Shown piece after piece: positions 22,584-46,244 of a stretch of 46,400 bases of DNA (its first letter is position 1; the number at the start of each line of letters is the position of its first letter). This stretch comes from an uncultured Anaerolineaceae bacterium. Lineage in GTDB: Bacteria; Chloroflexota; Anaerolineae; Anaerolineales; E44-bin32. A program made the position numbers and the translations under genes. The stretch lies in assembly GCA_964448245.1 (NCBI GenBank), contig CAYUWF010000002.1, positions 1-46,400 on the forward strand. The letters are read 5' to 3'. The notes under the pieces were generated by a model. It was not told the DNA's origin, did not search any database, and saw only the letters and a program-made list of their open reading frames with translations.

Positions 22584-22705
22584 GGCTAACAACTCGCTGG
22601 AGCCCTTCCAGGGTGCTTCGCGACCGACCCGGCCAGCCGGGTCGGCTCTGTTGGCGCGACACTGGGCTTCCGCTGGCCGGACGGCTCAGCTCGAGGCCGG
22701 TAGGC
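22584..22705 (+). mobile_element. attC site (degenerate R', 21-nt insertion)
   Basis: GGCTAAC AACTCGCTGGAG...CCGACCCGGCCAGC...GCTGGCCGGACGGCTCAGCTCGAGGCC GGTAGGC. Confidence 0.8.
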
Positions 22706-22750
22706 GGCCCGCTCCGCCTCTCCAAACATCGCCCGCCTGCGCCATCGACA

Positions 22751-22799
22751 TTCGTGACACAGGTCACGAAGTTGACTTCCCTATTAGTTCCGCCATAAT
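22751..22799 (+). promoter_or_regulatory. Sigma70 promoter with adjacent CRP/FNR-like palindrome
   Basis: TTCGTGAC-ACAG-GTCACGAA (GTGA-N6-TCAC), then TTGACT-16 bp-CATAAT. Confidence 0.6.
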
Positions 22800-22945
22800 G
22801 CCCTTAGCATCCCCGCAGCAGAGCGCCTCTGAGAGCGCGTACCGAGTCAGGCTCATACCATATCTTGGCTGCTCCGGCGCAAGCCTCCGGCAGCAACGCC
22901 ATCTCTCTCTCTTCGCCACCACAAGCAACAAGGGGGCTTCGCCAG

Positions 22946-23248
22946 ATGGAGAGACCGACGGTGAGGAAGGCAGTAATCCCACTGGCAATCATGCACGCAT
23001 TAAGCGCGTTTCGTCCGGGCTCTCCGCCCCAACTTACCGTCGCCGCAAGGCCTGAGCCAACCATCCCTTCCGCACTGTTCTCCTCCACCGGAGATCCATC
23101 GTCGCAGACGTTGGGGCCAGACGGCTGGCCATTAGACTGGCGCACCTCCACTACGAGCTTTGGGACCGGTATACGAAGTGGAAGGCGACCTGTTTGCATG
23201 CGCAAAGCGGAGAAGAGCTTGCTTAACTTATGGGAAGCATGTGAGTAG
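22946..23248 (+). pseudogene. Possibly decayed lipoprotein gene
   Basis: RKAVIPLAIMHALSAFRPGSPPQ looks like a lipobox with Cys changed to Phe, then a Pro/Thr linker. Confidence 0.3.
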
Positions 23249-23280
23249 AAGTCTTATCGTGTAGGCAAGGGTTTCAGTCA

Positions 23281-24588
23281 ATGGGCAACACTCCTGGCAA
23301 GAACTCGATCGGAGAGAAGTCCAACCCCTTCTTTCACCGCGGTCCAGTGCGCGACCCGGCGTACTTCTTCGGACGCAAAGAAGAGGTTCGCTATCTTTTC
23401 GACTTGCTACTGCGGGGACAGAGTGTGTCCGTTAGTGGGCCGCGCCGCTTTGGAAAAACGTCGTTACTCTTCAACGCTGCAGACCCAGGCATCATGCGCC
23501 AATATGGTCTTGATCCGCAACGGATACGCTGGGTGTACCTCGAAGGCGGGATGCTCGATGGATTAGACGAGGAATGGCTTTACGGCGCGATTGACCGTGG
23601 GTTAGGAAACGATGCAAACACGCTCCCCTATACGGGATTGTTGGAGCGGCTGCGGGGGCTCTCGGAACAGGGGCTCCGCCTGATCATTGCACTTGACGAA
23701 TTCGAACTGTTTGCGAGTAATCCACAGTTTCAGCCGAGCATGTTCAATCGCCTGCGTGGATTGGCAGGACAATTCGCGGTCAGTTTCGTGGTTGCTTCTA
23801 AAGAGCCACTCGCCAGACTCTCCTTTGCGCATCCAGAGACCCTCAGCTCCCCCTTCTTCAATATCTTTGCGCCAACTCCCCTTGGCCTCCTGCCGGAGCA
23901 GGAAGCCATAGAAATGCTCACTAGTTTATCCGCTCGCGGCGGACAAACTTTTAAACCGAGGACCAACCTATTCCTGCTCGATCTGGTAGGCCCCCATCCG
24001 TTCTTCCTGCAAGTAGCGGGCTACCGCGCTTTCGCGGCCCAGGATCGCGGGCTTCTGTCGTCCGATGCCTGCGCGGCTGTCCGGGAACAGGTAGGCAATG
24101 ATCTTGAAGGCCATCTCAATTACTATTGGTTTGGCATCTCATTGGCAGACCAATATGCCCTGGCATCTCTCCCCGTCATGGCCCTGGATAGCCGCTCATC
24201 GGCTTTCACCCGGCTGACGGAGGCTGGTTTGCTTCGCAAGAACGGCTATCTCGGTACGGTGCTCCGCGATTTCGTCTCGCGCCAGCGCATTGACGGGCTG
24301 CTCCAATGCGGGCGGTTTGTGATGGATGAAAGACGTAAGCTGGTAGCGGCAAATGGACAGTCAGTTCATCTTACCCCCACCGAATTTGAGGCCCTGCGTC
24401 TCTTGTTGCAGAATCCCGGCCAGCTTTTGACCCCGGAGGACATCGAGGCCGCCCTCTGGCCCGGCGAAATCGCGCCGGACCCTGAGCGCGCACGCGGCAT
24501 TGTGAAGAGGCTGCGTTCAGCCCTGGGACAGGCGGGAGAAGCGATTGTCACTGTGCGTGGGCAGGGATATGTCCTGAACCTCAAATAG
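23281..24588 (+). CDS. STAND/AAA ATPase fused to a C-terminal OmpR/PhoB-type winged-helix DNA-binding domain
   Basis: NPF..FFGR, GPRRFGKT, IIALDEFE, GPHPF; then HLTPTEFEALRLL...IEAALW...VKRLRSAL...IVTVRGQGY. Confidence 0.88.
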   Translation: MGNTPGKNSIGEKSNPFFHRGPVRDPAYFFGRKEEVRYLFDLLLRGQSVSVSGPRRFGKTSLLFNAADPGIMRQYGLDPQRIRWVYLEGGMLDGLDEEWLYGAIDRGLGNDANTLPYTGLLERLRGLSEQGLRLIIALDEFELFASNPQFQPSMFNRLRGLAGQFAVSFVVASKEPLARLSFAHPETLSSPFFNIFAPTPLGLLPEQEAIEMLTSLSARGGQTFKPRTNLFLLDLVGPHPFFLQVAGYRAFAAQDRGLLSSDACAAVREQVGNDLEGHLNYYWFGISLADQYALASLPVMALDSRSSAFTRLTEAGLLRKNGYLGTVLRDFVSRQRIDGLLQCGRFVMDERRKLVAANGQSVHLTPTEFEALRLLLQNPGQLLTPEDIEAALWPGEIAPDPERARGIVKRLRSALGQAGEAIVTVRGQGYVLNLK

Positions 24589-24735
24589 CGCCGGCATTCC
24601 ACCCAGGCCGTTTGTCTGTCTCCACGGACCCGATATTGCCCCGCAGTTGACCCGTAATTCCGCCCTATTTCCACCGGCTCTGTCCTTAGCTCCTGCCGGG
24701 ACCAGTCGTACCATGCAGGCAAGTCAATGCTGACA
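24589..24735 (+). promoter_or_regulatory. Phased 11-bp-repeat promoter, copy 1
   Basis: ATTGCCCCGCA/GTTGACCCGTA/ATTCCGCCCTA/TTTCCACCGGC/TCTGTCCTTAG (24635-24689); -10-like TACCAT at 24709. Confidence 0.75.
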
Positions 24736-24786
24736 TCGGGATCATGGCACTCCTGGAATAGCCGCATTCTAGGAAGGGAGAACCCC

Positions 24787-25371
24787 ATGGCTCAAGACAT
24801 TGGTCCGGCCTCTGCCTTGCCGACGGGTGTGTCGCCCTCTTTCGGCCCACCCGAGAAGCCGGAATCTCTGGAGGGCACCACACGCCTGGTCGAAGCGAAA
24901 CTCCGTCTGGAGAGTCGAGCGAATAGCGGTGCGTCGTGGTTCTACTGGATCGGCGGCCTCTCGATCCTGAACTCCATCATTGTTGTCGCTGGCGGGTCAT
25001 TCGCCTTCATCTTTGGGCTGGCTTTCACGCAAGTCATCGATACATTGGCATCCCTCATGGAGTCCGACTTAAGTATCAGCAGTCCCGGCATCATCACCTT
25101 CCTCGCCCTTGGAATGGACTTAGCCATAGCAGCCGCATGCGCCGGGGTCGGATATCTGGCGAGCAAGCGCAATCGGACGGTGTACATGCTTGGGATCGTC
25201 GTCTATGGCGTCGACGCCCTGATCTCCCTTGTCCTCCAGGACTGGCTAGGGGTTCTTTTCCACCTTTTCGTGTTGGCCGGTTTATGGAGAGGGATGAAGG
25301 CGATGAGAGCCCTGGCGACCATCGAATCAGGAGCCCTCCCCCTCGAAACCCTGCGAGTTGCGGCGCCTTAG
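24787..25371 (+). CDS. Multi-pass membrane protein, unknown function
   Basis: SGASWFYWIGGLSILNS followed by hydrophobic helices; GGGAG RBS. Confidence 0.8.
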   Translation: MAQDIGPASALPTGVSPSFGPPEKPESLEGTTRLVEAKLRLESRANSGASWFYWIGGLSILNSIIVVAGGSFAFIFGLAFTQVIDTLASLMESDLSISSPGIITFLALGMDLAIAAACAGVGYLASKRNRTVYMLGIVVYGVDALISLVLQDWLGVLFHLFVLAGLWRGMKAMRALATIESGALPLETLRVAAP

Positions 25372-25400
25372 GCTATCGCGACGATCAAGGAGACTATCCA

Positions 25401-26870
25401 GTGCTAAGCACAGAAGTTCTTGACGCAAGAATCCATCCCCGCTCCATCCGGACCAAGATCGTCTGCACCCTCGGCCCAGCCTCATCCGACGAGGCAACTT
25501 TGCGGGCCATGATCGAGGCCGGCATGACTACCGCGCGCATCAATCTGTCGCATGGGGAGCATGGTGACCACGCCAAGCAGATCACGCTCGTACGCCACCT
25601 TGCGCAAGAGATGGGCCGAGTGGTGCCCGTGATGATCGATCTTCAAGGTCCGAAGCTACGTATCGGCGTCATCGAGCATGAGCCGATCACGTTCGAAAAG
25701 GGACAAAGGATCACTTTTGTTCCGTCGACCAGTGGATCACGAGCAAATCAGATTCCCCTCCCCCACGCGCATTTGATTAACGGCGCAGCGATTGGCAACA
25801 CCGTATGGCTCGATGACGGTCTGCTGGAGCTGGTGGTCGTCGAGAAGGCACCTGGGGAGCTGCACTGTGAAGTGGTCGTTGGCGGCCAACTCTTCTCACA
25901 CAAGGGGATTAGCGTGCCGGGTGTCCGGAGCGATATGCCTGCCATTACGCCCAAAGATCGCAAGGACATCAAGTTTGCCGTTCAGCAGAAAGCCGACTTT
26001 ATCGCAATGTCTTTCGTCCAATCCTCGGCAAACATTGAGGAGCTGCGCGCGCTCATGGCCGCTCAGTCCGCCGCCATTCCGATTGTTGCCAAGATCGAGT
26101 CCCTGGAAGGCTTGGAAAACTTAGAGCAAATTGTGGAAGCCGCTGACGCTGTGATGGTGGCGCGCGGCGACCTCGGTGTGGAGGCCATCTTTGAGGAGGT
26201 GCCCGCGTACCAAATGCGCATCATCCGCGCCTGCAATAGGGCCGCCCGGCCCGTCATTACGGCGACTCAGATGCTTCACTCTATGATTCATTCTTCCCAT
26301 CCAACCCGAGCCGAAGCCAATGACGTTTTCACCTCGATCCATCAAGGATCGGATGCCGTGATGCTGTCCAGCGAGACAACCGTCGGCGATCATCCGGTTC
26401 GAGCCGTGGAGGTCATGAGCAAGATCGCCCGGATGGCCGAGCAGCACTTTCCGTACCGGACCTGGAACGTCGAACGCACAAACGGGGAGTCTCACTCCGT
26501 TACGGAAGGCATTGGGCAGGCAACCTGCACGATTGCGGCTTCGGTGCGCGCAAAAGCGATTATCACCAACACGATCTCAGGACGCACAACACGTGACGTG
26601 GCCAAGCACCGGCCCCAGTCGCTCATCATTAGCACGACTCCACGCGCGGAGACCCATCAGCAGATGGCATTGGTGTGGGGCGTGGAGTCGTTGCTGGTAC
26701 CTGAATTCTACGACACCGATTCGATGATTTCGGGAGTAAAGCACGCGGCGATCGCAGCTGGCCTTATCCGCCAGGACGACACCGTAGTCATCACCGCCGG
26801 AGTGCCCGTCGGCACGGTTGGGCAGACCAATCTGCTTCAGGTACATACGATGAGGCAAGCGGATCTATGA
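25401..26870 (+). CDS. pyk: Pyruvate kinase
   Basis: RTKIVCTLGPAS, DLQGPKLRIG, IVAKIES, VMVARGDLGVE, ITATQML; GTG start after AAGGAG (ORF-track start 24936 is overextended). Confidence 0.95.
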   Translation: MLSTEVLDARIHPRSIRTKIVCTLGPASSDEATLRAMIEAGMTTARINLSHGEHGDHAKQITLVRHLAQEMGRVVPVMIDLQGPKLRIGVIEHEPITFEKGQRITFVPSTSGSRANQIPLPHAHLINGAAIGNTVWLDDGLLELVVVEKAPGELHCEVVVGGQLFSHKGISVPGVRSDMPAITPKDRKDIKFAVQQKADFIAMSFVQSSANIEELRALMAAQSAAIPIVAKIESLEGLENLEQIVEAADAVMVARGDLGVEAIFEEVPAYQMRIIRACNRAARPVITATQMLHSMIHSSHPTRAEANDVFTSIHQGSDAVMLSSETTVGDHPVRAVEVMSKIARMAEQHFPYRTWNVERTNGESHSVTEGIGQATCTIAASVRAKAIITNTISGRTTRDVAKHRPQSLIISTTPRAETHQQMALVWGVESLLVPEFYDTDSMISGVKHAAIAAGLIRQDDTVVITAGVPVGTVGQTNLLQVHTMRQADL

Positions 26871-26926
26871 GTGCTCAGCCGGGAGCGCTGCCGCGCAGGG
26901 GCGAGCGAGGTTTGTAGATGTATGAA

Positions 26927-27021
26927 AACACAAGCTCGCTGGAGCCTCCCCGGCCAGCCCGGTGTCGGTTTCAGCGCGATATTGGCCTTGGCTGGCCGGG
27001 CGGCCCACCTGGCCATTCGGC
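26927..27021 (+). mobile_element. Degenerate attC site
   Basis: CTCGCTGGAGCCTCCCCGGCCAGC...GCGCGATATTGGCCTTGGCTGGCCGGGCGGCCCACCTGGCC ATTCGGC; same family as 22584 and 31904. Confidence 0.7.
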
Positions 27022-27038
27022 GGCGCAGAGGGCAGTCG

Positions 27039-28097
27039 ATGGAAATTAGCCGGGAGTTGTTCGATCAGGAACGACGCCCCCGATTCGGGACCGCCAACCC
27101 GGAGCGGATGCAGCTCGCGTTCTGGGAGTGGATCCGCGGCGAAGCAAGCCCTCCGGCACAGCAGGAGGGCGTCCTCGGCAAGTTTGGGCTGATGAAGCGG
27201 AATGGCATCATCAAGTCGCGTTACGGTCCCTGGCGGGCGCGGGACCTGTTCAATGCCCCGGCGAACCGCGAGGACGGGCCGATCTGGACCTTCGACCGAG
27301 ATGGGCAGACCCGCACCGAACTGCCGGACGGGCGGGTGGTGCGCATCGGCGGCGAGCACGAGGACGGCTATGACCCGGACTTCTGCATCTACAACGACGT
27401 GGTCGTCTTCGGCCCCGCCGGCCAGATCGAGATCTACGGCTATCCGAAGGAGGTGTTCCCGCCGACCGACTTCCACACGGCTACCCTCGCCGGCGACCGG
27501 ATCATCATCGTCGGCCGCTTTGGCTACGAGGACGACCTCCGCCCGGGGCACACCCCAGTCTACGCTCTCCACCTGTCGGGGTACCACATCTCCGAAATTG
27601 AAACTTCGGGCGACATGCCCGGCTGGGTCTTCAAGCATGCGGCCGAGTTCGCCTCGGGAGGGGTCATCACCATACGGGGTGGGGCGGTTATCGAGGACCA
27701 TGAGGGCGAGCATCGGTATCGGCGCAACGTCGAGGATTACGCGTTGAACATCCAATCCGGGGTTTGGCACCGCCTCACGAACCGGAACTGGCGTCAGTTC
27801 TCGATCCGCCAAGAGGACCGAGGGCTGTTCGTGTTGGAGCAGTATCCGCAAGTGGAGGCCCTCGTGCCCCGCATCATCGAATGCGCGGTCGATCCGAGTG
27901 AGGACTTGGATGAGGACTTGGAACGAATCCGGATCGTGGTCGGAGGAGTGCCGGTGTCCGTGATCGTGAGCATCTACAGGATCGAGATCATTGTTGAGGG
28001 CGATCTGCCCGCCGAGTCGGCACTCCGGTTGGCCGAGGAGGTTCGCGCCAACGCCGAGGCCGCCATCCAGCGTCGGTGCGTTCTGGAGCAGATGTGA
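27039..28097 (+). CDS. Cassette hypothetical protein (family usually annotated as ankyrin-associated)
   Basis: RFGTANPERM, GGEHEDGYDPDFCIYNDV, FPPTDFHTAT; ATG 18 nt after an attC end. Confidence 0.8.
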   Translation: MEISRELFDQERRPRFGTANPERMQLAFWEWIRGEASPPAQQEGVLGKFGLMKRNGIIKSRYGPWRARDLFNAPANREDGPIWTFDRDGQTRTELPDGRVVRIGGEHEDGYDPDFCIYNDVVVFGPAGQIEIYGYPKEVFPPTDFHTATLAGDRIIIVGRFGYEDDLRPGHTPVYALHLSGYHISEIETSGDMPGWVFKHAAEFASGGVITIRGGAVIEDHEGEHRYRRNVEDYALNIQSGVWHRLTNRNWRQFSIRQEDRGLFVLEQYPQVEALVPRIIECAVDPSEDLDEDLERIRIVVGGVPVSVIVSIYRIEIIVEGDLPAESALRLAEEVRANAEAAIQRRCVLEQM

Positions 28098-28105
28098 CCG
28101 GCCGC

Positions 28106-28197
28106 GCCGAACCGGCCGCTGCAGCCAGGCCAGGCCGCCATTTCCTTTTCCAGGAGTTCAAGCCGTTCCAGGCGGCCCCGGCGGCTGACCGTTGGAG
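28106..28197 (+). mobile_element. attC site of a different sequence family
   Basis: GCCGAAC CGGCCGCTGCAGCC...GGCCGCC...GGCGGCCCCGGCGGCTGACC GTTGGAG, 8 nt after the stop codon. Confidence 0.7.
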
Positions 28198-28220
28198 CCG
28201 GGCCGCTCCTGGCGATCGGA

Positions 28221-28360
28221 GTGTCCAAGCTGTGGTACTCGGGACGTAAGCGGTTCGATAAGCAGACGGGAAGGGGTGGCTTGGCTACCTCCGCTCGCTG
28301 GGGCGCAGTGACCTAGAGCGGGTCGTCACGCTCGACAGCATGCTCTGCCCCCGGTCGTCC
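28221..28360 (+). pseudogene. Frameshifted 5' fragment of a cassette hypothetical gene
   Basis: VSKLWYSGRKRFDKQTG, frameshift, WLGYLRSLGRSDLERVVTLDSMLCP; directly after an attC. Confidence 0.4.
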
Positions 28361-28605
28361 TCTGGAAGATGGCCAAGGGAGGGGGGCTGCCCGCGGCGCA
28401 AAACCAGGCGATTCTCAAGGAGTCGCCAGAGCAGATATTCCTCAGTGCAGATAGGGGCGGAGCGATCCGCTGGCTTGAGGCGACACTGAGCCTGGGAGAA
28501 GACCAGGAGGCTCAAGAAACATCTAAGCTCTCGGGCCTCCTATTCCGCTACTCGGACGGTAGACTGGCGCCGTTCTGCAGGTGATGCGTGGAACGTGAGG
28601 CGTCA

Positions 28606-29070
28606 ATGAGCACTGACTTGTCACTCGACCAACGCGCTTTCCACATTGCGGTGGCGAGCATTCGCCGACATTCGATGGATCCCGGCGACTGGAAGCACAC
28701 CACCATCGGTGCGCTGCATCCTGGGCTGGAATTCGTGCTCTTGCTTGCCCCTGGTGAAATGGTGCTTGCCAGCGCGTTCTTCTCCAGAGCGAGCTGGTAT
28801 GGGTTCACAACGCGCCGTATCGTCAGTGAGCTCGCCGGCGCGCGCCGTGAACTAGACCCTCGAGACGGAATCACTTTCGACATGGCCAATTTCAAGGGCA
28901 GAGGGCGTAACGGCACGGTGGTGCCAACCGAAGTGGGAACGGTAACCTCCGCTCGAGACGGCCAATCGCTTCGCTTCGAGTTCGAAACTGTGAAAGCTTC
29001 CATGGCCCCTATGTACGCTTGTATGTTCTGGTCTGTCAGCCTGGTCGCGCGGGGGTGGGCGCTCCAGTGA
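28606..29070 (+). CDS. Hypothetical protein
   Basis: 154-aa ORF with GAGG upstream; same strand as the array. Confidence 0.6.
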   Translation: MSTDLSLDQRAFHIAVASIRRHSMDPGDWKHTTIGALHPGLEFVLLLAPGEMVLASAFFSRASWYGFTTRRIVSELAGARRELDPRDGITFDMANFKGRGRNGTVVPTEVGTVTSARDGQSLRFEFETVKASMAPMYACMFWSVSLVARGWALQ

Positions 29071-29354
29071 GAAAGCTGGGACAGTTGCGCAAGTGAAAAC
29101 GACCCGCACCAGCCTCCTCGCAATCTCCAGCCCTCTCATTGCCATAGTTGGATGCGTCACTGTTGGTGCGGAATTGGTTGAGACCAGCTCCCTAATCGTA
29201 GCCTTACGTGACTCCAAGCCTTCACTGACTAACACGGGGAACGACCTCTAATGCTTGTTTTGGTGACAAAAGGCAAACACGTCAATGACGAAGAGTGTTC
29301 AAGGGGAGCCGTCTTCGGAACCGGCAAATGGGTCGTCTCCCGCTGTCGGCACAC

Positions 29355-29377
29355 GCCCGCAACGCAAACCGTTAGGC
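29355..29377 (+). mobile_element. attC 3' remnant
   Basis: GCAACGCAAACC GTTAGGC 23 nt before the next ATG; no convincing 5' half. Confidence 0.45.
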
Positions 29378-29400
29378 GGCCACGAATAGGGGAGGGGTCA

Positions 29401-30201
29401 ATGCGCCTGCTTCTTTCGCTCTCTGCAAGCTCGGCTTTGCTCTTTGCCTGCTCACTACCCAGTTCTGTTACTGGCTCAGGCCGGGCCCGCCCAACCCCTC
29501 ATTGGGTCGACATGCTCTGTTCCTCGGATATCCCGGCTGCGGAGGAGGCGTACAACAGAGCCTGGGACTCATTCGATAGAGGAGACTTGGACCAGGCAGA
29601 ACAGCTCTACGGGAAGGCCATCGAACTGGACCCCGGCTTCTGCGACGCGATGGACAATTTAGGACTCCTACTCCGACAAGAAGGCCGCCTCGATGAAGCG
29701 ATATCATGGTACAAGGCGTCACTCGAAGTCTTACCTTCGAACGCTACGGCCCTCCAGAATCTGGCGGGCGCCTACCAGGTCCGTGGAGACACGCAGAATG
29801 CGATCAATTCATTCGAGGCTTTGATCGAACTTGACCCACAAAATCCAGAGGGCTATTACGGGCTCGGCAACCTTTACTCGCACCTCGGCCGCGCACCCGA
29901 CTCCGTGCCCTATCTTGAGACAGCCCTTCAGCTCTACGATAACCCCGGCTCGCCCCGCGCTCTCGACGCGCACTACCTGCTTGGGCTTGCACTCTACACC
30001 ACCGAAGACTGTCTCAACGCTGTCCCGCACCTCGAGGCTGGTTATGACCACTTCGAGGAAGATCCCGATGTCAATTATGCGTTGGGATACTGCTACCTCA
30101 CACCAGAGTTCAATGACACCGAGAGCGCGCGTGTCTTTCTCAAGAAAGCGGAGAGTCTGGGTGTTGACATTCCATCCGAACTCGAAGAGTTCGTGCGGTA
30201 A
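29401..30201 (+). CDS. TPR-repeat lipoprotein
   Basis: GGAGG RBS, lipobox LLFAC, about five TPRs (KAIELDP, AMDNLG, GYYGLG). Confidence 0.85.
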   Translation: MRLLLSLSASSALLFACSLPSSVTGSGRARPTPHWVDMLCSSDIPAAEEAYNRAWDSFDRGDLDQAEQLYGKAIELDPGFCDAMDNLGLLLRQEGRLDEAISWYKASLEVLPSNATALQNLAGAYQVRGDTQNAINSFEALIELDPQNPEGYYGLGNLYSHLGRAPDSVPYLETALQLYDNPGSPRALDAHYLLGLALYTTEDCLNAVPHLEAGYDHFEEDPDVNYALGYCYLTPEFNDTESARVFLKKAESLGVDIPSELEEFVR

Positions 30202-38783: not shown

Positions 38784-39917
38784 ATGACGGGTAGAAGGAA
38801 TGTCATTACCGGGATCGTGCTGCTGGCTGTGGTTGCCGCCGCGGTCAGACTGCTCATACCACCGCCGCCTCCCACCCCCACGCCGACTCCCGCCCCCACG
38901 CCGACTCCCGCCCCCACGCCCACGCCGACTTCTACTTCCTATACCGAATTGAATGTCTTCGGTGGGTATCGCTTCTTCGAAGATGAAGAAATCATGGCGA
39001 TCTTGCATGACAGGTATGCGATTGATGTAGTCGGTGAGTTCCGCAAGGGCACATTTGACATGTCCACCGACTACGTAGACGAGGATTGCATCTTTCCGGG
39101 CAGCAAGACCGGAATCGACAATTTTGAAGCCGAGCACCCCGACGTGATCCGGCGATCGGAGGCGGTCTTTCAAGCTCCCATTACCGTCTATACCTGGAAG
39201 GAGTTCCTGCCCTCACTGGAACAGGCCGACCTTGTTTTCACTAGGGATGGCGTCTATTTCCTGCGTATGAAGCCTCTGATCGACGCCATGCACGAAGACA
39301 AGCAGTGGCTTGACCTGGGAGTTGATATTCCGGGATACGTGAACGTGGAATCGACCGATCCGCTCGAGAGTTCAAGCGGAATGATCTGGCTGGCGCTCAT
39401 GGCAAGCTATCTGGTGCCAGGCAACGAGACGGGTGGCAGGGTGGTGACATTGGATGATCTCATTGACAATGACATCCTACCGGTGTTGCGCAAGTATTGG
39501 GAGAACCAGGGTAACCAAACCATCACCACCGGGAAACTGTTCCCCAGATTCATCACGACGGGCGCAGGGATGCCGATGATTGTTGCTTATGAAAACAGCT
39601 TTATTGGCTGGTACGAAGCGTTACCTGACGACCAGAAACCACAGGCAGATCGAATCGTGGGTATTTACCCTCAAGTGACGATCAGTACCGAACACAGTCT
39701 GGCCTCTCTCACTCCCGCCTGCGACCAACTTCTCGAAATGTTCATGACCGACGCCGAGATTCAGCGACTGGCTTGGAACAACTATGGGATGCGCAACATC
39801 GCCGGGGGTATCGGCGCCCGCCCGGGTAGCGCTAGCTGGATCGCCGTAACCGTCCCCTATGTCCCGGAGCCAAAGACAGATGTGACCGACGCCCTCGAGG
39901 CGGAATTGAGCCGGTAG
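38784..39917 (+). CDS. Membrane-anchored extracellular solute-binding protein
   Basis: GAGGAG RBS, TM, Pro/Thr linker (18-bp tandem repeats), STDPLESSSG, PMIVAYEN. Confidence 0.75.
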   Translation: MTGRRNVITGIVLLAVVAAAVRLLIPPPPPTPTPTPAPTPTPAPTPTPTSTSYTELNVFGGYRFFEDEEIMAILHDRYAIDVVGEFRKGTFDMSTDYVDEDCIFPGSKTGIDNFEAEHPDVIRRSEAVFQAPITVYTWKEFLPSLEQADLVFTRDGVYFLRMKPLIDAMHEDKQWLDLGVDIPGYVNVESTDPLESSSGMIWLALMASYLVPGNETGGRVVTLDDLIDNDILPVLRKYWENQGNQTITTGKLFPRFITTGAGMPMIVAYENSFIGWYEALPDDQKPQADRIVGIYPQVTISTEHSLASLTPACDQLLEMFMTDAEIQRLAWNNYGMRNIAGGIGARPGSASWIAVTVPYVPEPKTDVTDALEAELSR

Positions 39918-39954
39918 CTCAGTCCCTTTCAGCTTCCAATAGAAAGGCAAACCC

Positions 39955-41142
39955 ATGGCTGACGCAATGGTAGATCCCAAAGAGGCGAACAGCATTGTCA
40001 CGATGCAGCAATACTCCAAGGAGATCAAGAGGTCGCCTGCTCTCCCGCCATTGTCGGATAAGGACATGGCCCGCGCCCGGGAGCTGTCCAGAGCCCTGAT
40101 CCGTACGGAAGACCAGTTGGACGACATCGTCCTCTTTGGCAGCGACGCCCACAACGCCGTAGCGCAAATCACGAGAGACATGCTACGCGGAGTCCGGGTC
40201 AATGCCATGGACGATGTGATCCACATATCGGATCACGCTCTGGTTCAGATCAACGCGCTCGACCTGGGAGAGCTCACCCCCGCGGCCCGTCGCTACCTTC
40301 TCGTTCTCCGGGAATCCACCGCGGCCATCAGGCATCGGATCGAAAAGTTCTTCAGGGGTTACGAGCTGGTCAATTCTCGGTTGGAATCCCTGGTTGCAGA
40401 AATCCTTGGCAAGGAGACGGAGTCAACCAAGCGCTACTATGCAGATGTTGAGCTCGAAAAGGGGACCTTCGATGTCATGCTCGACGCACGCATCAAGCTG
40501 GCAGCCATCCGGCTCTTTCTGAATGGCGACTATGGTTACGTGGAATGGGATCGCCGCCAGAAGCTGGTGGCGGAGGAACAGGCCGCGGCCGGGCGCGAGA
40601 CTCGTTCGGTGGACTTCGTGATTGTGGCGGCGGCTGAGCGTTACGCGAAGTACATTGAGCGCCTGGAGATGAAAGGCGCCTCGCTTTCGCAGGCGATTCT
40701 CTCGGCCTACCAGACAGGCGTCACCATCCGCTTGATGCGCGAGAATGAGAACATCATTCGCCAGAAGCTGGTCGAAGTTCGCACCGAGCTCGTCCCGCAA
40801 TGGCGTACGCTCATCGCCATCGCCTACAGCGCCTATCAACAACGGGGCATTGCTGCCTTCGTGGGCCGAGTCCGGGACGCTGAAAGTGAATTGCGTAAGA
40901 AGGTTGGTGAGCAACTGGAAATGGCAACCAACGGCGTGGCCGATATGGTCACCCAGCAAACCTTCGAACCCGAGGCCATGGTCTACTACCACGATAAGCT
41001 GGTAAAGTCGCTCGAAACGCTGAAGAGCGCTTCGATTGAGGCCAGGAAGATCCGCAGCGCCGCCGAGGCATTTACCGAAGAGTACATTGCGAAACTGGGA
41101 GAAGCCGTCGTTGCGACTTCTCTACGCGCTCAGCAAGACTAG
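39955..41142 (+). CDS. TelA/KlaA toxic anion resistance family protein
   Basis: IVLFGSDA, all-helical body, IRLMRENENII...LVPQWRTLI motif. Confidence 0.75.
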   Translation: MADAMVDPKEANSIVTMQQYSKEIKRSPALPPLSDKDMARARELSRALIRTEDQLDDIVLFGSDAHNAVAQITRDMLRGVRVNAMDDVIHISDHALVQINALDLGELTPAARRYLLVLRESTAAIRHRIEKFFRGYELVNSRLESLVAEILGKETESTKRYYADVELEKGTFDVMLDARIKLAAIRLFLNGDYGYVEWDRRQKLVAEEQAAAGRETRSVDFVIVAAAERYAKYIERLEMKGASLSQAILSAYQTGVTIRLMRENENIIRQKLVEVRTELVPQWRTLIAIAYSAYQQRGIAAFVGRVRDAESELRKKVGEQLEMATNGVADMVTQQTFEPEAMVYYHDKLVKSLETLKSASIEARKIRSAAEAFTEEYIAKLGEAVVATSLRAQQD

Positions 41143-41157
41143 CTCGGTGGTCCAGAA

Positions 41158-41821
41158 GTGACTGCGCTGCAATTGAAAAGGAGCATTGGTAGAGTGGCCT
41201 CCAGATGGCGGGGATCCTCTCCAGCAGACATGGCATCGTTGAGCTGTGGGACGGACCTCGCAGGAGCCTACCACAACCGCGGGTTAGCCTATCTCAGCAA
41301 GGGTGACTACGACCGCGCAATCGCCGACCTCGACAAGGCCATTCAACTCGGCCCAGGCGGCGCAGATGCCTACAACAACCGCGGATGTGCCCGCGGCAAC
41401 AAGCGCGACTACGACCTGGCCATCGCCGACTTCGACAAAGCCATCCAACTCAAGCCGGATCTCGCACGAGCCTACTTCAACCGCGGATATACCAACGGCT
41501 TGAAGGTAGACCACGACCTAGCCATCGCCGACTTCGACAATGCCATCCAACTCAAGCCAGATTGCGCAGAAGCCTACAAGAAACCGCGGAACTGCCTTCC
41601 ACAGCAAGGGCGACCACGATCGGGCCATCGCGGACTTCGACATCGCCATCCCGCTCAAGCCAGACGAGGCAGTGGTCTACTTCAACCGCGGGCTGGCACT
41701 TGCCATGAAGCGAGATAAAGATAATGCCATTGCCGATTTCAAAAAGGCTTTGGCATTGAGCAGTGACTCAAATCTGCGGCAGGCCGCGGAGAAGGGCTTG
41801 CGCGAGTGGGCGCCGGGGTGA
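41158..41821 (+). pseudogene. TPR protein with a one-base frameshift
   Basis: 102-bp repeats AYxNRG...AIADFDKAIQLKPD; an extra base in TACAAGAAACCGC near 41580 splits it into two ORFs. Confidence 0.8.
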
Positions 41822-42005
41822 TCAAGGCGGCCGGTGTAGGCCCGAGACTAGTCAGCGCTGCGTGGCGCGCCTCCGCGAAGCCGCCTGCCTTGGAACAGAA
41901 GACGGCGGCGATCGGCAAGCATATGCCGTGGGAGGGCCTTGCTGCCGTCCTTTGGGGCAGCGGTGACTGTCGGGATGCGGGGATTCGAAGCTGAGGCTGA
42001 GCGGA

Positions 42006-42088
42006 AAGAGGCTGCCCACAGCGCTGGATCAGGGGGAATACGTGATTGCCAACGTGCGCCGCAGGGACATATCCTGAACCTCAAATAG
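42006..42088 (+). pseudogene. 3' remnant of a paralog of the winged-helix regulator
   Basis: KRLPTALDQGEYVIANVR/QGHILNLK* versus KRLRSALGQAGEAIVTVRGQGYVLNLK*. Confidence 0.8.
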
Positions 42089-42250
42089 CGCTCGCATTCC
42101 ACAAAGGCTCTTGTCTGCCTGCACTGACCCGATATTGCCCCACAATCTCCCCTCAATTCCGCCGTAATTCCACCGGCCCTGTTCTTAACGCCGGCTGGGA
42201 TCAGCCGTACCATGCAATCAAGTCAATGCCCACGACGGCATCGTTGGTCT
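42089..42250 (+). promoter_or_regulatory. 11-bp-repeat promoter, copy 3
   Basis: ATTGCCCCACA/ATCTCCCCTCA/ATTCCGCCGTA/ATTCCACCGGC/CCTGTTCTTAA (42134-42188); TACCAT at 42208. Confidence 0.75.
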
Positions 42251-42265
42251 ACGGAAGAACCAAGC

Positions 42266-42853
42266 ATGATGCAGGAGGCTCCAATTTCGGCACAGCCTCT
42301 CGAGACGCGGCCAGGCCGGCGAAGGTGGCCATGGGTCGCAGGATTCGCCACTGTCTTGTCGGTTGTGATCTGCAGTGCCCTATCCCTATCGCTCTCGACA
42401 GTCTTGCCCAAACTTGCAGAGTCGCTAGACTTGGGCGAAACGCCGCAACTCCACGACGAAGACTACGCTATGGCGGGGCGCGCGCTGTCAGAGAGATGGG
42501 ACAGCGACGCCAGCATCCCCACCGCGAGCACATACTGGAGTTTTATCTATGTTTCTGGCCAAGAGACCCAAGTTTGGCTGGTCCTCGAGATTTCCTACAC
42601 AGGCACGTGCAACTCAACATCCAAGGACCCATGTGAGGCTCTCGTGGATGAGCTCGCACGCATCGTATTCGATAACTATGCGCATGTTGACGAGCTCGCA
42701 GGAATTGAAGTCGCTATCACGAATTACTCCCATTTCGGCCCCGTTGAGTTCTCGATCACTCCCCTTGACAAGGCTCTCACCATCGAGGAATGGCGGAGGG
42801 AGTTGTCGATCGATACCAACATACTTTGTCAGACCGGATATAAGGATTGTTAA
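42266..42853 (+). CDS. Single-TM anchored extracellular protein
   Basis: RRRWPW, TM helix, acidic domain with a Cys pair. Confidence 0.7.
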   Translation: MMQEAPISAQPLETRPGRRRWPWVAGFATVLSVVICSALSLSLSTVLPKLAESLDLGETPQLHDEDYAMAGRALSERWDSDASIPTASTYWSFIYVSGQETQVWLVLEISYTGTCNSTSKDPCEALVDELARIVFDNYAHVDELAGIEVAITNYSHFGPVEFSITPLDKALTIEEWRRELSIDTNILCQTGYKDC

Positions 42854-42898
42854 TACACTCTGTTCTCAGATTTCACACTTCATGTAGACGTTCCGGAG

Positions 42899-42941
42899 CT
42901 AGGCTTTGCTGGCCGCGCGGCTCAGCTCGAGGTCGTTAAGC
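42899..42941 (+). mobile_element. attC 3' half
   Basis: CTAGGCTTTGCTGGCCGCGCGGCTCAGCTCGAGGTC GTTAAGC matches the 3' arms ending at 22705 and 32000. Confidence 0.75.
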
Positions 42942-43000
42942 GGCTCCGGCCGCAGGCACGGGGCGTCGCACGCCCCACCCAGAAGAAAGGGCAGGCAAAC

Positions 43001-44068
43001 ATGGATCCCGCACTTTCTAGCCCCAAACCGCGAGGAATCTCATCCGGGCGCCCTCTTCTTTACGCTTGCCTGGGCTGCTTCGCCGCAGCCCTCCTGCTCT
43101 CCTGCGTTCTTTGCCTAGGCGGACTCATCTGGTTCATCTCGCTCCCTGAAGGCGGCGTCAGGCTCGGAAACGAGATGGAAAGGTATGCCCTCGATTACAT
43201 CGCAGAGCACAATCTCGTCGAGGCTGACGAAACCGTCCTCGCCTACTACGACGCTACCTTCTCGGGAGATGGAACAGAAGCGGCGATTCTTACTGATAAG
43301 CGCCTGATCTACCACCTCCAAGGCACCACCACGAGCATGCTCCTCCAGGATATCGTTGATGTTCAGCACCGCGAGGACCCCCTTCTCGGCGACATCATTG
43401 TGGCGATCGCAAGCTCCGGGCAAACAATGAGACTCGAAATCGCTCGCTGGAATGACGGAGCGACATTCCACAGCATCCTCCTCAATGCTTGGCACAACTT
43501 GGTTTCGCCTTCTGAAATTCCTGCGGAGGAAGGATCGGGGCTCGAAATGCCCACGATCTCCGGCCTCGGTGATTGGGAGTGGGACGGCGAATCGGATGGC
43601 TATGAATACTTCATCGCCAGCGCTGAGGATATTCACGAAGACATCAGGGATTGCGTTACGGATGACGTTCTGAACAGCGGGATGGACCTGCACACGGTGG
43701 AGGCCACCATCTCGACCCATGGTCATGGTTGGGAGACCCTGTTCACCTTCTGGATGGCCGATCTTGATCCGGGGGCATCCGGAGAGTGGGTGGTCGAGAT
43801 CCAAAACTCTCTCGGGTTCCTGATGCTTAACGATGCTTCCGAACTCGACACCGGTGGTCTCGAGCCGCCTCCAACCTTGCAATCCGTTTCAACGTTCAGC
43901 GAGCTCGGCTACGATCTGAAGGTCTTCGATCTGAAGATCCCGACCCTTCACACGAGCGCCGTCGCCGCCGCGGAAGGCCTGCGGCCATGGTTCACGGAGC
44001 TCACGCTGAGCGTTCGAGCGGAGACGCCCAGCGGCCCTGCATGTGATGAGTTCAGTCCCGCGGGCTAG
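43001..44068 (+). CDS. Membrane-anchored two-domain protein (PH-like domain plus shared C-terminal module)
   Basis: Cys-rich TM, YYDATFSGDGTEAAILTDKRLIY; C-terminus duplicated with the 30641 gene. Confidence 0.82.
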   Translation: MDPALSSPKPRGISSGRPLLYACLGCFAAALLLSCVLCLGGLIWFISLPEGGVRLGNEMERYALDYIAEHNLVEADETVLAYYDATFSGDGTEAAILTDKRLIYHLQGTTTSMLLQDIVDVQHREDPLLGDIIVAIASSGQTMRLEIARWNDGATFHSILLNAWHNLVSPSEIPAEEGSGLEMPTISGLGDWEWDGESDGYEYFIASAEDIHEDIRDCVTDDVLNSGMDLHTVEATISTHGHGWETLFTFWMADLDPGASGEWVVEIQNSLGFLMLNDASELDTGGLEPPPTLQSVSTFSELGYDLKVFDLKIPTLHTSAVAAAEGLRPWFTELTLSVRAETPSGPACDEFSPAG

Positions 44069-44083
44069 CCTCGCTTACCATGG

Positions 44084-44379
44084 GCCCAACTACTCGCTGG
44101 AGCCCCTTCGACTGCGCCCCTCGGGGCTCCGCTCAGGGCAGGAGCAACGATCCGGACCGCGGGCGAAAATGGCGACGAGGCTTGGCTGCGGGGTCGTCGT
44201 AGAGTGGGGAGGGGCTACCTGAGCTCGTCCCGGGGGACACGGAGGTGGGGTGAGACGCCGACGCACCCCCAACGAAGGTGGAAGCTGACCAAGGCGTGTG
44301 GTCGTAGGGGCTCAGTTTACCCTCGGCTTGCCCCCGGTTCTCGCGGGGGTATTGGCGAGTGTGCTCGAGGCCGTTAGGC
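44084..44379 (+). mobile_element. attC arms separated by inserted or mosaic sequence
   Basis: GCCCAAC TACTCGCTGGAGCC at the 5' end and GCTCGAGGCC GTTAGGC at the 3' end, 296 bp overall. Confidence 0.65.
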
Positions 44380-44401
44380 GGGCATACCACCACACTCTCA
44401 T

Positions 44402-45115
44402 ATGGCTTACTACGATAGCATCGCGAAACGCTGGCACGAAACGACTGGCTACAAAGGCGGTGCTTTCAAGGAACTGGTCTTGAACAACATTCTCTTGGGC
44501 AAGCTGTCGGGAATTGACAACCGCTCCATCTTGGAACTGGGTGCGGGTAATGGTTATTTCCTGCCTTTAGTGTTGCGTCGTTTCTCAGGCGAAGTGCCTT
44601 CGAGTATTACTGTGACCGACCTGTCCCCGAGGCTACTCGAAATTGCTCAACGGCGGTTTAGGTTGACTGATGCCGGGTATCAAGTCCTGGATGTTCGCAA
44701 ATCTTTACCCTTTGATGACGGCCAGTTTGATCTAGTCATTGCCTCCATGCTTTTCAATGAAGTGCCTTCGCGCGACTTCAGAAACGCGCTAAGCGAATGC
44801 TACCGGGTGTTATCGAGCGCTGGTCTATTGCTTATTGCGGTGACCCATCCTGACTTTGTCAATGGTTTGCGAAAAAGGGGATTGCTGAAAGCCACGCGCC
44901 AGGGGGTGCTAACGATGCCCGGCTCTGGCAGTCTCCGGCTTCCCGTGGTGATCAGATCGTTAGGCAGCTACAGGAGTGGCCTTCAAGCAGCCGGATTTCA
45001 GTATGAAGAGGAAGAAGGCTATCCGACTCCTGAAGTTCTAAACGTCAAGGCCGGTTTGCGGAACGCTTGGAAAGTACCAGTAGCCTTAGTTTATGCATGC
45101 AAGAGAGCCGGGTGA
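44402..45115 (+). CDS. Class I SAM-dependent methyltransferase cassette
   Basis: ILELGAGNG, TDLSPRLL, LPFDDGQFDLVI; clearly more AT-rich; flanked by attC sequences. Confidence 0.9.
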   Translation: MAYYDSIAKRWHETTGYKGGAFKELVLNNILLGKLSGIDNRSILELGAGNGYFLPLVLRRFSGEVPSSITVTDLSPRLLEIAQRRFRLTDAGYQVLDVRKSLPFDDGQFDLVIASMLFNEVPSRDFRNALSECYRVLSSAGLLLIAVTHPDFVNGLRKRGLLKATRQGVLTMPGSGSLRLPVVIRSLGSYRSGLQAAGFQYEEEEGYPTPEVLNVKAGLRNAWKVPVALVYACKRAG

Positions 45116-45120
45116 GGCCC

Positions 45121-45186
45121 GCCTAACACGCCAAACAGCCGACCCGCTTCGCGGTGCTCAGCAGGCGGCTGATGCTTTCGTTAGAT
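45121..45186 (+). mobile_element. attC site (66 bp)
   Basis: GCCTAAC...CAGCCGACCCGCT...AGCAGGCGGCTGATGCTTTC GTTAGAT. Confidence 0.85.
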
Positions 45187-45217
45187 GGCAACGAGCATGA
45201 AGCCTCTTAGGCCATGA

Positions 45218-45514
45218 ATGTGTACGAGCTTGAAATCGGTGCCTCCACAAGGGGACCTAAGGGGTATCTTTGAGGAGGCTACCGAGGCGATGGCCTTCGT
45301 CACCACGCAAGTTACAACGCTTGCCCAGTATCCAAGCTGCATTCACTGGCATTTCAAGCGCGGCGGGGGCCGAGGCAAATTGGAGGTGACCTATTGGCCA
45401 GATCGGAACAAGGCCTGCCTGGCTTGTCCATCCGGCCGTGAGGCAGATTGGATCGGTCCAGTGATTTACGAATTCCGGAGCCTCGTCAAGATGCGAGCGG
45501 TTGGCAATCGCTAG
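45218..45514 (+). CDS. Cassette hypothetical protein, 5' end possibly frameshifted from ATG 45214
   Basis: TLAQYPSCIHWHFKR...GKLEVTYWP...GREADWI; between two attC sites. Confidence 0.65.
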   Translation: MCTSLKSVPPQGDLRGIFEEATEAMAFVTTQVTTLAQYPSCIHWHFKRGGGRGKLEVTYWPDRNKACLACPSGREADWIGPVIYEFRSLVKMRAVGNR

Positions 45515-45530
45515 CCGCCCCATGCGTGCC

Positions 45531-45580
45531 AGCTGACAATTCGCTGGTGCGGACGCCGCATTAGCGCACAGCCGTTAGGC
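45531..45580 (+). mobile_element. Short degenerate attC
   Basis: AGCTGAC AATTCGCTGGTGCGGAC...GCGCACAGCC GTTAGGC. Confidence 0.6.
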
Positions 45581-45596
45581 CGCGCCACTCGGAACC

Positions 45597-46244
45597 GTGC
45601 CCAAACCTTTCCTTCCCCCGATCCCCCCTCCTCCCAAGGCCCAAGCTGCGCGCACCGGCTTCAGGCAATACTTGAAGCGCTGCGCCGCAACGATCGGCGC
45701 CTTCATCGCTGCCATCTGGCTTGTCGAGCTCACGAGCGCACTCTTCTTTCACGGCACACTCAAGAATCTCGGCATTCAGCCCCGTTCCATCGGTGGCCTC
45801 CTCGGCATCCCCCTTCACGCGTTGCTTCATCTCGACGCCGCTCATCTGTGGCACAACTCGCTCGGCATCCTGCTCCTCGGAGGTCTCGTCTTCCTCCGCC
45901 AGGAAACTCACTTCTGGGTGGTCACTTTCCTGGGCACCCTCGTTGGGGGAATCGGGGTCTGGCTTGTGGCCCGTCCAGGTGTTCATATCGGCGCCAGTGG
46001 GGTCATCTTCGCTTACTTCGCCTACCTCCTTTGCGCAGGTTGGTTTGAACGTCGCATCGGGGGCATCCTTCTTTCCGTTGTGGTGTTCGTTATCTGGGGC
46101 TCCCTGCTGTTTGGCCTCCTGCCTTTGCAGGGAGGGATCTCCTGGGAAGGACACATCTTTGGCCTTCTTGGCGGGGTGCTGGCAGCGCTACTGATTGCCC
46201 GGCACCGGAAGCGCAGACTGCGAACCGTTCCGAGGCATAGGTAA
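45597..46244 (+). CDS. Rhomboid intramembrane serine protease
   Basis: HLWHN, HIGASG (catalytic Ser), SWEGH (catalytic His). Confidence 0.9.
   Translation: MPKPFLPPIPPPPKAQAARTGFRQYLKRCAATIGAFIAAIWLVELTSALFFHGTLKNLGIQPRSIGGLLGIPLHALLHLDAAHLWHNSLGILLLGGLVFLRQETHFWVVTFLGTLVGGIGVWLVARPGVHIGASGVIFAYFAYLLCAGWFERRIGGILLSVVVFVIWGSLLFGLLPLQGGISWEGHIFGLLGGVLAALLIARHRKRRLRTVPRHR

Follow-up and report, generated by a model that had tools for sequence, protein, structure and literature searches.

Clusters of attC sites lacking an integron integrase (CALINs) are the closest described relatives of the element considered here; the relevant sections of Cury et al. (2016; PMC4889954), from which that definition is taken, set the clustering threshold at 4 kb, twice the length that the biggest cassettes on record reach (~2 kb), and give loss of intI, rearrangement and secondary-site insertion as possible origins. 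In Xanthomonas, according to the pertinent part of a further study (PMC12444791), CALINs occur away from the integron at ilvD and intI has been inactivated in a lineage-specific manner, and IntI-mediated insertion of cassettes at non-classical genomic attG sites is described in the preprint 10.1101/2022.09.11.507474. The present analysis concerns an array of attC and half-attC sites located within the first 46,400 nt (hereafter the window) of a 54,115-nt contig (C2; CAYUWF010000002.1) from an uncultured Anaerolineaceae bacterium, represented by a metagenome-assembled genome (MAG; G000) of 2.43 Mb in 198 contigs, which is 90% complete with a G+C content of 67% (0.673) and includes no contig shorter than 2.5 kb.

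The array is very probably a CALIN with cassettes drawn from the chromosomal-integron pool of the Anaerolineales, housed in a 25-kb, low-G+C, strain-specific island. The arrangement that defines a CALIN, at least two attC sites on the same strand less than 4 kb apart, was found in two runs of sites, one comprising 26927, 30251, 31904 and 32374, and the other 42899, 44084, 44357, 45121 and 45531. A preliminary description of this DNA had likewise proposed a CALIN in decay, which is borne out by mutation of the core triplets, by the presence of half sites and of gene fragments, and by the frameshift in a TPR gene. The element is of a kind already known, its only unusual details being a pyruvate kinase gene among the cargo and a repeated ~190-nt element, here termed X.

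The island and its setting

Along the window the G+C content drops from 0.64–0.71 to 0.55–0.64 near 22.5 kb, and remains low up to the window end. The locus was compared with its counterparts in four congeners (G001–G004), three of which are short-read MAGs and one of which (G003) is an almost closed, long-read-style assembly. Both flanks proved to be syntenic in all four: on the left leuS, two tRNA-Ala genes, and the M24 peptidase, MFS and PAP2 genes, and on the right everything from C2 47176. Homology with G002 DNA stops at 22078 and returns at 47176, and the DNA lying between the flanks in the congeners (67 nt in G001, 2.4 kb in G004, 3.1 kb in G002 and 4.9 kb in G003) is unrelated and contains no attC. 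Since the flanks are syntenic and the congeners carry only short, unrelated DNA between them, the island could be delimited as C2 22079–47175 and recognised as specific to this genome; it occupies a variable hot spot between the PAP2 gene and a conserved neighbour. Its overall G+C content is 0.591 against 0.665–0.682 in the flanks, the other arrays of the MAG having values of 0.61–0.65. In G003 the PAP2 locus lies at 399.5 kb on C1 and the integron at 657–744 kb on C1 and 165–171 kb on C2, and because that integron is thus remote from the PAP2 locus, the island does not mark the integron locus of the genus.

A tandem pair of tRNA-Ala genes with the anticodons GGC and CGC (18494–18644, minus strand) is situated 3.4 kb to the left of the island, but is not its insertion site because three syntenic core genes intervene. 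At the other end a scaffold gap of 100 N occupies C2 46401–46500, and 55 nt are duplicated on its two sides (C2 46346–46555; L002 1–155): the duplication represents an unmerged assembly overlap, and hence the link from the array to the right flank rests on scaffolding. The structure of the array itself is no accident of assembly, because five of the sites (26927, 28106, 31904, 32374 and 42899) are each spanned by identical contigs from the runs of other studies. For the region 26800–34800, a fraction of 0.65–1.00 of the words sampled was present in each of nine runs, which belong to three studies (sediment and freshwater sediment) and of which two may be the source. These metagenome comparisons deployed contigs, and are evidence of what exists, not of what is absent.

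An attC family linked to an integron integrase

The copies at 22584–22705, 26927–27021 and 31904–32000 are clearly homologous to one another, and a profile built from these three detected ~25 further copies (E < 0.01) on C1, C27, C82, C50, C24 and C71 of the MAG, which are clustered, confined to a single strand in each cluster, and spaced at 0.5–1.8 kb. The family consensus reads GCCTAAC-AACTC-GCTG[G]AGCC ... GGCTCAGC-TCGAGGCC-GTTAGGC, its 5′ part before the ellipsis being also written GCCTAAC-AACTC-GCTGGAGCC, and L″ has one extra base. Its boxes are the R″, L″, L′ and R′ of an integron attC site; the extra base is a top-strand G in this family, where the classical aadA7 site presumably has C. 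The inner repeats GCTG[G]AGCC and GGCTCAGC pair with one another, the spacers being AACTC and TCGAGGCC, and helix 2 is paired at 95%. In a MAFFT alignment of 15 copies made independently of structure, 90.7% of helix cells were paired as opposed to 20–46% with slid partners, and in five pairs both partners had changed (C-G having become U-A in six sequences, for instance), giving a covariation score reached by two of 500 shuffles: this is modest evidence, as the aligned sequences are related.

The ends of the family carry the canonical cores RYYYAAC (R″) and GTTRRRY (R′) expected of attC, and nine of the eleven sites listed in the preliminary description begin 6–57 nt past the stop codon of a plus-strand open reading frame (ORF) in a set of co-oriented genes, much as had been described. 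A covariance model (R1) was constructed from seven short copies, of which the array adjoining the G003 integrase gene supplied five; it was restricted to short copies because aligning every candidate site jointly in MAFFT gave a result too untidy for modelling. Searched genome-wide (E up to 1), R1 gave 26 matches, all of them clustered on seven of the 198 contigs, and so the genome-wide scatter that the preliminary description had named as one part of a refutation was not encountered. A scan of public genomes with the 3′ repeat motif recovered 104 stretches, nearly all from MAGs of the Anaerolineales, Anaerolineae or Chloroflexota, a result that places the organism among the uncultured Anaerolineales.

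The connection with an integrase was established through relatives. The integron integrase profile TIGR02249 scored above its curated cut-off in 15 of 41 genomes (G000 plus 40 relatives), and in G003 an intI gene at C2 165179–166118 (251 + 165 bits) is adjoined, from C2 167122 onward, by six family copies ~700 nt apart on the other strand. A further 97 family matches extend over C1 657–744 kb to the contig end, making an array of ~100 sites. The G003 intI contains a single frameshift and is otherwise open to its natural stop, with the HxxR...Y residues intact; its description as a pseudogene was considered and softened, since the PAP2 and M24 genes are also frameshifted in the same assembly and the gene therefore cannot be called a pseudogene.

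Accordingly, the repeats are genuine integron attC sites. That they might instead be a non-integron palindromic family, of the repetitive extragenic palindromic (REP) or miniature inverted-repeat transposable element (MITE) type, with a resemblance to attC is scarcely credible: the genome does harbour other G/C-rich palindromic repeats (3576, 6890–7031) and the fold z-scores of the sites are weak, but such a family would account neither for the canonical cores and extra L″ base, the strictly single-strand orientation and the placement at the 3′ ends of ORFs, nor for adjacency to intI in G003 and restriction to so few contigs.

The palindromic intergenic repeats with G/C runs (TCTGGGGGGTGGGGAGAGC...GCTCCCCCCACCCCCCAGA) form a separate group, found at 3576–3635 and 6890–7031 of the window, at L002 5814–6017, and, being kept in a congener, at L016 6788–6905 of G003; they cause weak false matches to the attC model. 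Within the attC family, a sub-family ends in GGCTCGCCCACAGGGTTGCTTCGCGA rather than GGCTCAGCTCGAGGCCGTTAGGC (G000 C1 58237–58336, 59956–60086 and 62706–62836; C27 2706–2841 and 4357–4491), and many copies carry one of three different hairpin inserts of 26–36 nt directly after L″. At C1 703360–743645 of G003 a 3′ half site, 13 nt and a 5′ half site recur in that order, four start-to-start spacings being exactly 133 nt and one 131 nt, which has the look of a reiterated mini-unit or of a junction devoid of any cassette.

Evidence for the individual sites

When R1 was run on both strands of C2 with filters off, three of the eleven listed sites (31904, 26927 and 22584) were significant. No match was returned at 29355, 30251 or 32374, and at 28106 the model matched only the minus strand (E 0.037), with a separate plus-strand match at 28162 (E 0.92). 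Two of the three sites originally named as the best, 22584 and 31904, thus held up under this model, and the third, 45121, did not (E 0.63).

As R1 penalises half sites and short sites, two half-site matrices (21 nt for the 5′ half and 23 nt for the 3′ half) were trained on 48 full-length G003 sites, with the 4.77 million positions outside arrays in the rest of the MAG as the null. All nine matches of at least 6 bits on C2 were on the plus strand and within the island. At most three null positions reached 13.1 bits, the lowest of the 5′ scores, and none reached the lowest 3′ score of 17.1 bits, the null maximum being 15.3 (individual scores are given in Table 1).

The resultant tally for the eleven plus-strand sites of the preliminary description is eight supported against the null (22584, 26927, 30251, 31904, 32374, 42899, 44084 and 45531), one plausible (45121), and two (28106 and 29355) unsupported by score; one unlisted half site, 44357, was added. 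The accompanying statement that most of the sites share a common consensus was too strong: the 5′ motif occurs with 0–1 mismatch at four of those listed (22593, 26935, 31913 and 44093), and also at 12059 (−) and 41257 (+), which had not been listed, and the 3′ motif, with up to three mismatches, at three sites only.

The weaker candidates were assessed separately. At 28106, 15 of 21 positions agree with the 5′ consensus, a value equalled by 92 null positions, and the 29355 remnant matches at 9 of 11 positions, as do 39 such places on C2, and stayed below 6 bits in the half-site scan; for both, the only support is a location beside an ORF end. At 45531, 15/21 agreement with the 5′ consensus is combined with a 10/11 match to the 3′ core 18 nt downstream, and a joint test returned no null matches at 15/21 or above, the five joint null matches all being at 13/21. 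The 45121 site is plausible as an attC and is not separable from chance: its fold z-score is −1.75, a stability matched by 13 of 200 shuffles, and a strict regular-expression attC scan of the plus strand of C2 gave five pattern occurrences, namely 45121 and four chance pairs. The half site at 30251 has 84% identity with the 44084 site's 5′ end, that at 32374 is spanned by an identical contig from an independent study (X4 record 15), and that at 42899 (nhmmer E 7e-4) by X3 record 11. An Rfam search over 18000–46400 (E up to 1) returned just the two tRNAs and chance matches; neither an attC family nor a group II intron was among them.

Table 1. Features of the island and their positions in the window (C2 positions where indicated).
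Feature	Position	Strand	Details
Strain-specific low-G+C island with the array	C2 22079–47175 (window 22079..46400)		~25 kb; crosses scaffold gap
Full attC, 122 nt	22584..22705	+	26-nt internal insert; R″ GGCTAAC; R′ mutated to GGTAGGC, GTT lost; R1 34–35 bits, E 6e-6 (22584/22603–22705); nhmmer E 1.8e-21; 5′ half 33.7 bits, 3′ half (22683) 34.2 bits
Cargo of 4.2-kb interval	23281..26870	+	STAND NTPase with C-terminal winged helix 23281–24588; membrane ORF 24727–25371; pyruvate kinase ~25401–26870
X copy 1	24557..24751	+	3′ end of STAND-wHTH gene plus ~160 nt of conserved non-coding DNA
Full-length attC, both cores eroded	26927..27021	+	R″ ACACAAG, R′ ATTCGGC; 57 nt past pyruvate kinase stop; R1 43.5 bits, E 3e-8 (26928–27021); nhmmer E 8e-22; spanned by X3 record 5
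Possible attC, other sequence type	28106..28194	+	GCCGAAC...GTTGGAG; 9 nt past ORF stop; score-unsupported
Possible R′ remnant (listed as 29355)	29367..29377	+	AACCGTTAGGC; 24 nt before likely ORF start; score-unsupported
5′ half site (R″–L″), no partner	30251..30271	+	15.5 bits; two null positions equal
X copies 2 and 3	30381–30566; 42058–42251		Only a remnant of the STAND-wHTH gene 3′ end
Best attC, 97 nt	31904..32000	+	R′ GTT intact; R″ AAC to AGC; bottom strand folds end to end; R1 91.1 bits, E 5e-20; fold z-score −3.06; 5′ half 26.5 bits, 3′ half (31978) 21.8 bits
5′ half site, left border of 10.5-kb interval	32374..32412	+	13.1 bits; three null positions equal
Orphan fragment a of cassette gene 30641–31888	32413..32509	+	97 nt; 79% copy of 31223–31319; directly after 32374 half site
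Cargo of 10.5-kb interval	32513..41821	+	STAND NTPases 32513–34699 and 34696–35730; SBP+vWA 35992–38073; two unknown ORFs; TelA-like 39955–41142; TPR 41158–41821
Frameshifted TPR gene	41158–41821	+	Repeat spacing 102, 102, 103 nt; TPR continues in second frame (+1)
3′ half site (L′–R′), right border of 10.5-kb interval	42899..42941	+	GTTAAGC; 29.0 bits (42919); no null position equal
Short attC-like hairpin	44084..44145	+	R″–L″–L′ intact, R′ lost; 5′ half 29.3 bits; R1 E 0.14
Additional 3′ half site, unlisted	44357..44379	+	Spacer plus R′ GTTAGGC; 17.1 bits; 23 nt before methyltransferase ORF
Short attC, other sequence type	45121..45186	+	Exact RYYYAAC...GTTRRRY cores; end-to-end hairpin; R1 E 0.63
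Short attC, 50 nt	45531..45580	+	R′ GTTAGGC intact; R″ AAC to GAC; the family's extra G in L″

Absence of an integrase

Six-frame searches with TIGR02249 and PF00589 that read through stops detected no tyrosine recombinase or integron integrase anywhere on C2, so that the absence noted upstream of the array in the preliminary description extends to the whole contig. Throughout the 198 contigs of the MAG no intI was found, the best TIGR02249 score being 27 bits (on C39); the three PF00589 matches in the MAG are all on contigs other than C2, and tblastn of the G003 IntI against the MAG gave no match with an E value below 0.5. The genes upstream of the first site are those for PAP2, MFS, M24 peptidase and tRNA-Ala, all of them syntenic core, and the layout of a complete integron is thus not present. 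Among the congeners, TIGR02249 gave no match above cut-off in three of the four, these being the three short-read MAGs.

Other clusters of the same family were located in the MAG at C1 52.4–64.05 kb, C27 0.5–5.4 kb, C82 0.1–4.4 kb and C50 12.7–13.1 kb, with a normal spacing of 0.5–1.8 kb. For those on C82 and C50 the flanks upstream are assembled and contain no intI, and the MAG therefore contains several separate integrase-less clusters.

Erosion of the sites and the long intervals

Only one of the five complete sites (45121) retains both the AAC and the GTT triplet. In the others, the altered triplet reads GGT at 22584, AGC at 31904 and GAC at 45531, both are lost at 26927, and four or five further sites are halves. 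In G003, by comparison, both triplets are kept in 48 of 49 sites near the integrase and in five of 11 in the distal third.

The two long intervals reported in the preliminary description were confirmed by measurement, one being of 4,221 nt (22706–26926) and the other, from 32374 to 42899, of 10.5 kb; if 28106 and 29355 are set aside, a third long gap of 3.2 kb (27022–30250) results. None of the 96 intervals of the G003 array (median 776 nt, longest 2,897 nt) exceeds 4 kb, and both window intervals are longer than all of them. These gaps probably come from lost recombination sites and from rearrangements, and not from captured native operons.

The footprint of one such rearrangement can be discerned at the borders of the 10.5-kb interval. 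The homology of orphan fragment a to the cassette gene at 30641–31888 ends at 31319, and the homology of ORF 43001–44068 to the same gene starts at 31325, within 5 nt: on comparison of the sequences it looks as if a paralogous cassette gene had received an insertion of ~11 kb. Further traces of rearrangement in the long blocks are the X copies, two of which hold only a remnant of the 3′ end of the STAND-wHTH gene. Half-site borders lying next to truncated gene copies point to illegitimate recombination within foreign cassette DNA. Towards the right end of the block the TPR gene is frameshifted, and its sequence up to 41718 is present in a contig from another sample.

A relative from another study (X10; ~92% identical) carries, in record 4, a different sequence of 344 nt where the window has 44327–45495, which here holds the methyltransferase and ORF 45218 cassettes, a replacement that looks like strain variation on the scale of cassettes. 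In record 2 of the same relative, what comes before the junction between the fragment and the STAND gene is an X element, not an attC half. Joints from 31941 to 42908 and from 31941 to 26974 were considered as evidence of excision and rejected, since their sides measure 20–31 nt and the intervening letters belong to other copies of the family.

It is improbable that the long intervals are giant multi-gene cassettes, in which case the 10.5-kb STAND/vWA/TelA block, and possibly also that of 4.2 kb, would have been captured and would be mobile as a single attC-bounded unit. The half sites at 32374 (5′) and 42899 (3′) do stand in the right order, both broken near the same consensus CTAG, the genes are all co-oriented, and in X7 record 23 the start of the STAND gene follows the 5′ part of an attC at a distance of 52 nt. 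Against this, neither border has a complete attC, the orphan fragment lies inside the left border and together with the homology of ORF 43001 (31319 versus 31325) has the appearance of an insertion into a cassette ORF, the X10 relative has X in place of attC before the fragment–STAND junction, none of the 96 G003 intervals is longer than 2.9 kb, and the largest known cassettes, on the figure quoted in the relevant section of PMC4889954, are ~2 kb. Loss of sites and rearrangement remain the preferred explanation for both intervals.

Cargo genes

Pfam searches identified three STAND NTPases (one of them a winged-helix fusion), a pyruvate kinase, Kelch-like, TPR, SBP+vWA and TelA-like proteins, a methyltransferase and a rhomboid protein. 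PADLOC recognised no known defence system, its sole match being the methyltransferase with a mad2-type model, and NCBIfam supplied no useful names for the cargo.

Several lines of evidence bear on the provenance of these genes. The G+C content of the long intervals (0.58) is the same as that of the surrounding small cassettes, the genome as a whole being at 0.67. The island pyruvate kinase, 57 nt upstream of an attC, is the only one in the MAG; it is at most 47% identical to the pyruvate kinases of the 24 relatives searched, and the family was found in none of the four congeners. G000 and three of the four congeners possess pyruvate phosphate dikinase. The TelA-like protein and STAND NTPase were likewise not found in any of the four congeners, and the vWA protein has only distant homologues (at most 29% identity), in five of 400 other genomes of the class. 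On this evidence the cargo is foreign to the genus and not native.

The same data make it most unlikely that the array serves as a landing zone for native chromosomal operons, as the preliminary description had supposed. Ordinary-looking genes, including those for pyruvate kinase, a transporter-like SBP and a TPR protein, do occur in operon-like co-orientation. The long intervals nevertheless have the low, cassette-like G+C content rather than the native value of 0.67, the pyruvate kinase, TelA and STAND NTPase genes were not found in the congeners, the nearest pyruvate kinases among the relatives are remote, the genus has the dikinase instead, and the island is lacking at this locus in all four congeners.

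The X element

Element X, of ~190 nt, is present in three copies in the genome, all within the island and each before a different ORF. The STAND-wHTH gene is intact only at 23281–24588, and X carries its last codons; of the two parts of X, the non-coding one is conserved better than the coding one. X also contains a pair of direct repeats of 11 bp, TAATTCCNCCN, which could be an operator for the STAND-wHTH regulator. Further copies were found neither in the MAG nor in the fetched loci, and two pattern scans of metagenome contigs gave no matches; in a fold of the X consensus the covariation term was unfavourable, and no RNA structure was supported. In the related strain (X10), X sits upstream of the 10-kb STAND/vWA/TelA block.

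These observations invite the idea, which is given little credence here, that the array has been growing by a second, attC-free route in which X acts as a portable regulatory or recombination junction coupling a sensor-regulator to interchangeable effectors, the oversized blocks then being modules built by X. If this were so, the sole pyruvate kinase of a genus reliant on pyruvate phosphate dikinase would be among modules spread via X and not via attC.

Origin of the array and weight of the evidence

For a CALIN in this position, arrival could have involved IntI-mediated insertion at a secondary site followed by accretion of cassettes through attC × attC recombination, or alternatively the translocation of an old, integrase-distal piece of a main array. 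Once without IntI, the sites would have been eroded by point mutation, deletion, duplication and insertion, as a result of which neighbouring cassettes would have become fused into the long 4.2-kb and 10.5-kb blocks, which do not move. The array would now be a fixed accessory island with genes dependent on their own promoters, and at most 45121, and perhaps 31904 and 45531, which keep GTT or AAC, might on the evidence of their triplets still be cut by an integrase acting in trans.

Several observations weigh against this account. Both routes of arrival are conjectural, and the island's left border shows no recognisable secondary-site or attG-type junction. Four of the eleven listed sites (44084, 42898, 45121 and 45532) are weak under R1 (E 0.14–0.73), and R1 alone cannot separate them because about five equally weak plus-strand matches fall outside the island. 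Single-strand fold z-scores barely differ from those of shuffles in such G+C-rich DNA, six of seven sites lying between +0.5 and −1.75 and only 31904 reaching about −3. Record 23 of X7, a 311-nt contig of low depth, with its attC 5′ part ahead of the STAND gene, suggests that the big module may once have had a proper attC border. The frameshift in the G003 intI may be real or an assembly error. Finally, three of the other attC clusters (C1, C27 and C82) run off contig ends, and as the MAG is 90% complete, an intI could sit in unassembled DNA, in which case the term integrase-less could be true of the locus and not of the cell.

This last point leads to the most serious competitor, according to which the cell has a working integrase on unassembled DNA and the array is a satellite serviced in trans, not a dead relic; such a state of affairs has an appreciable chance of being correct, short of an even one. 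It is favoured by the G003 intI, readable bar one frameshift and with HxxR...Y intact, by the occurrence of intI in 15 of the 41 genomes searched, by an incomplete MAG with no contig below 2.5 kb and with arrays running off contig ends, and by the 344-nt replacement in X10, which resembles turnover on a cassette scale. It is opposed by the lack of any intI fragment in the 198 contigs and of intI in three of four congeners, and by the mutated triplets in four of the five complete sites, unexpected under continued use when sites near the G003 integrase are intact in 48 of 49 cases; moreover, the R′ crossover points fall elsewhere than the limits of the X10 replacement (44326 and 45496). A CALIN in decay, as opposed to a serviced satellite, accordingly continues to be the favoured interpretation.

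Comparison with described systems

In terms of the features given for CALINs in the relevant sections of PMC4889954, the window array conforms in having at least two co-oriented attC sites, no nearby intI or recognisable intI pseudogene, and cassettes mostly of unknown function. It departs from them in that two intervals exceed 4 kb and most sites are eroded or halved. Because of those two intervals, IntegronFinder at its default setting would probably split the array into a singleton at 22584 and clusters at 26927–32000 and 42899–45580, and tools with a 4-kb clustering rule would fragment and under-count arrays of this sort. The attG insertions described in 10.1101/2022.09.11.507474 offer a route by which a CALIN could be founded outside attI; such a founding event would be conjectural here, no attG-type junction being recognisable at the left border.

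The element adds little that is new on integrons, CALINs being common. Its value is that of a worked example of array death, in which erosion of attC leads to fusion of cassettes into long immobile blocks, and it illustrates that cassette arrays of the Chloroflexota can bring a gene of central metabolism, that for pyruvate kinase, to a lineage without it, together with multi-gene STAND/vWA/TelA modules.

With the Xanthomonas clusters, as portrayed in the pertinent part of PMC12444791, the array shares a location off the ancestral integron locus and the stability of arrays once integrase activity is lost; unlike those clusters, it is an island in one species-level genome of the Chloroflexota and is not kept across species. 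Comparison with the sedentary chromosomal integron of G003 is closer still. That integron is intI-adjacent, with ~100 sites at a median spacing of 776 nt, whereas the window array lies elsewhere, with ~10 sites and gaps of up to 10.5 kb; both are nevertheless composed of the same attC family, and the distal third of the G003 array, with its lower scores, is similarly eroded.

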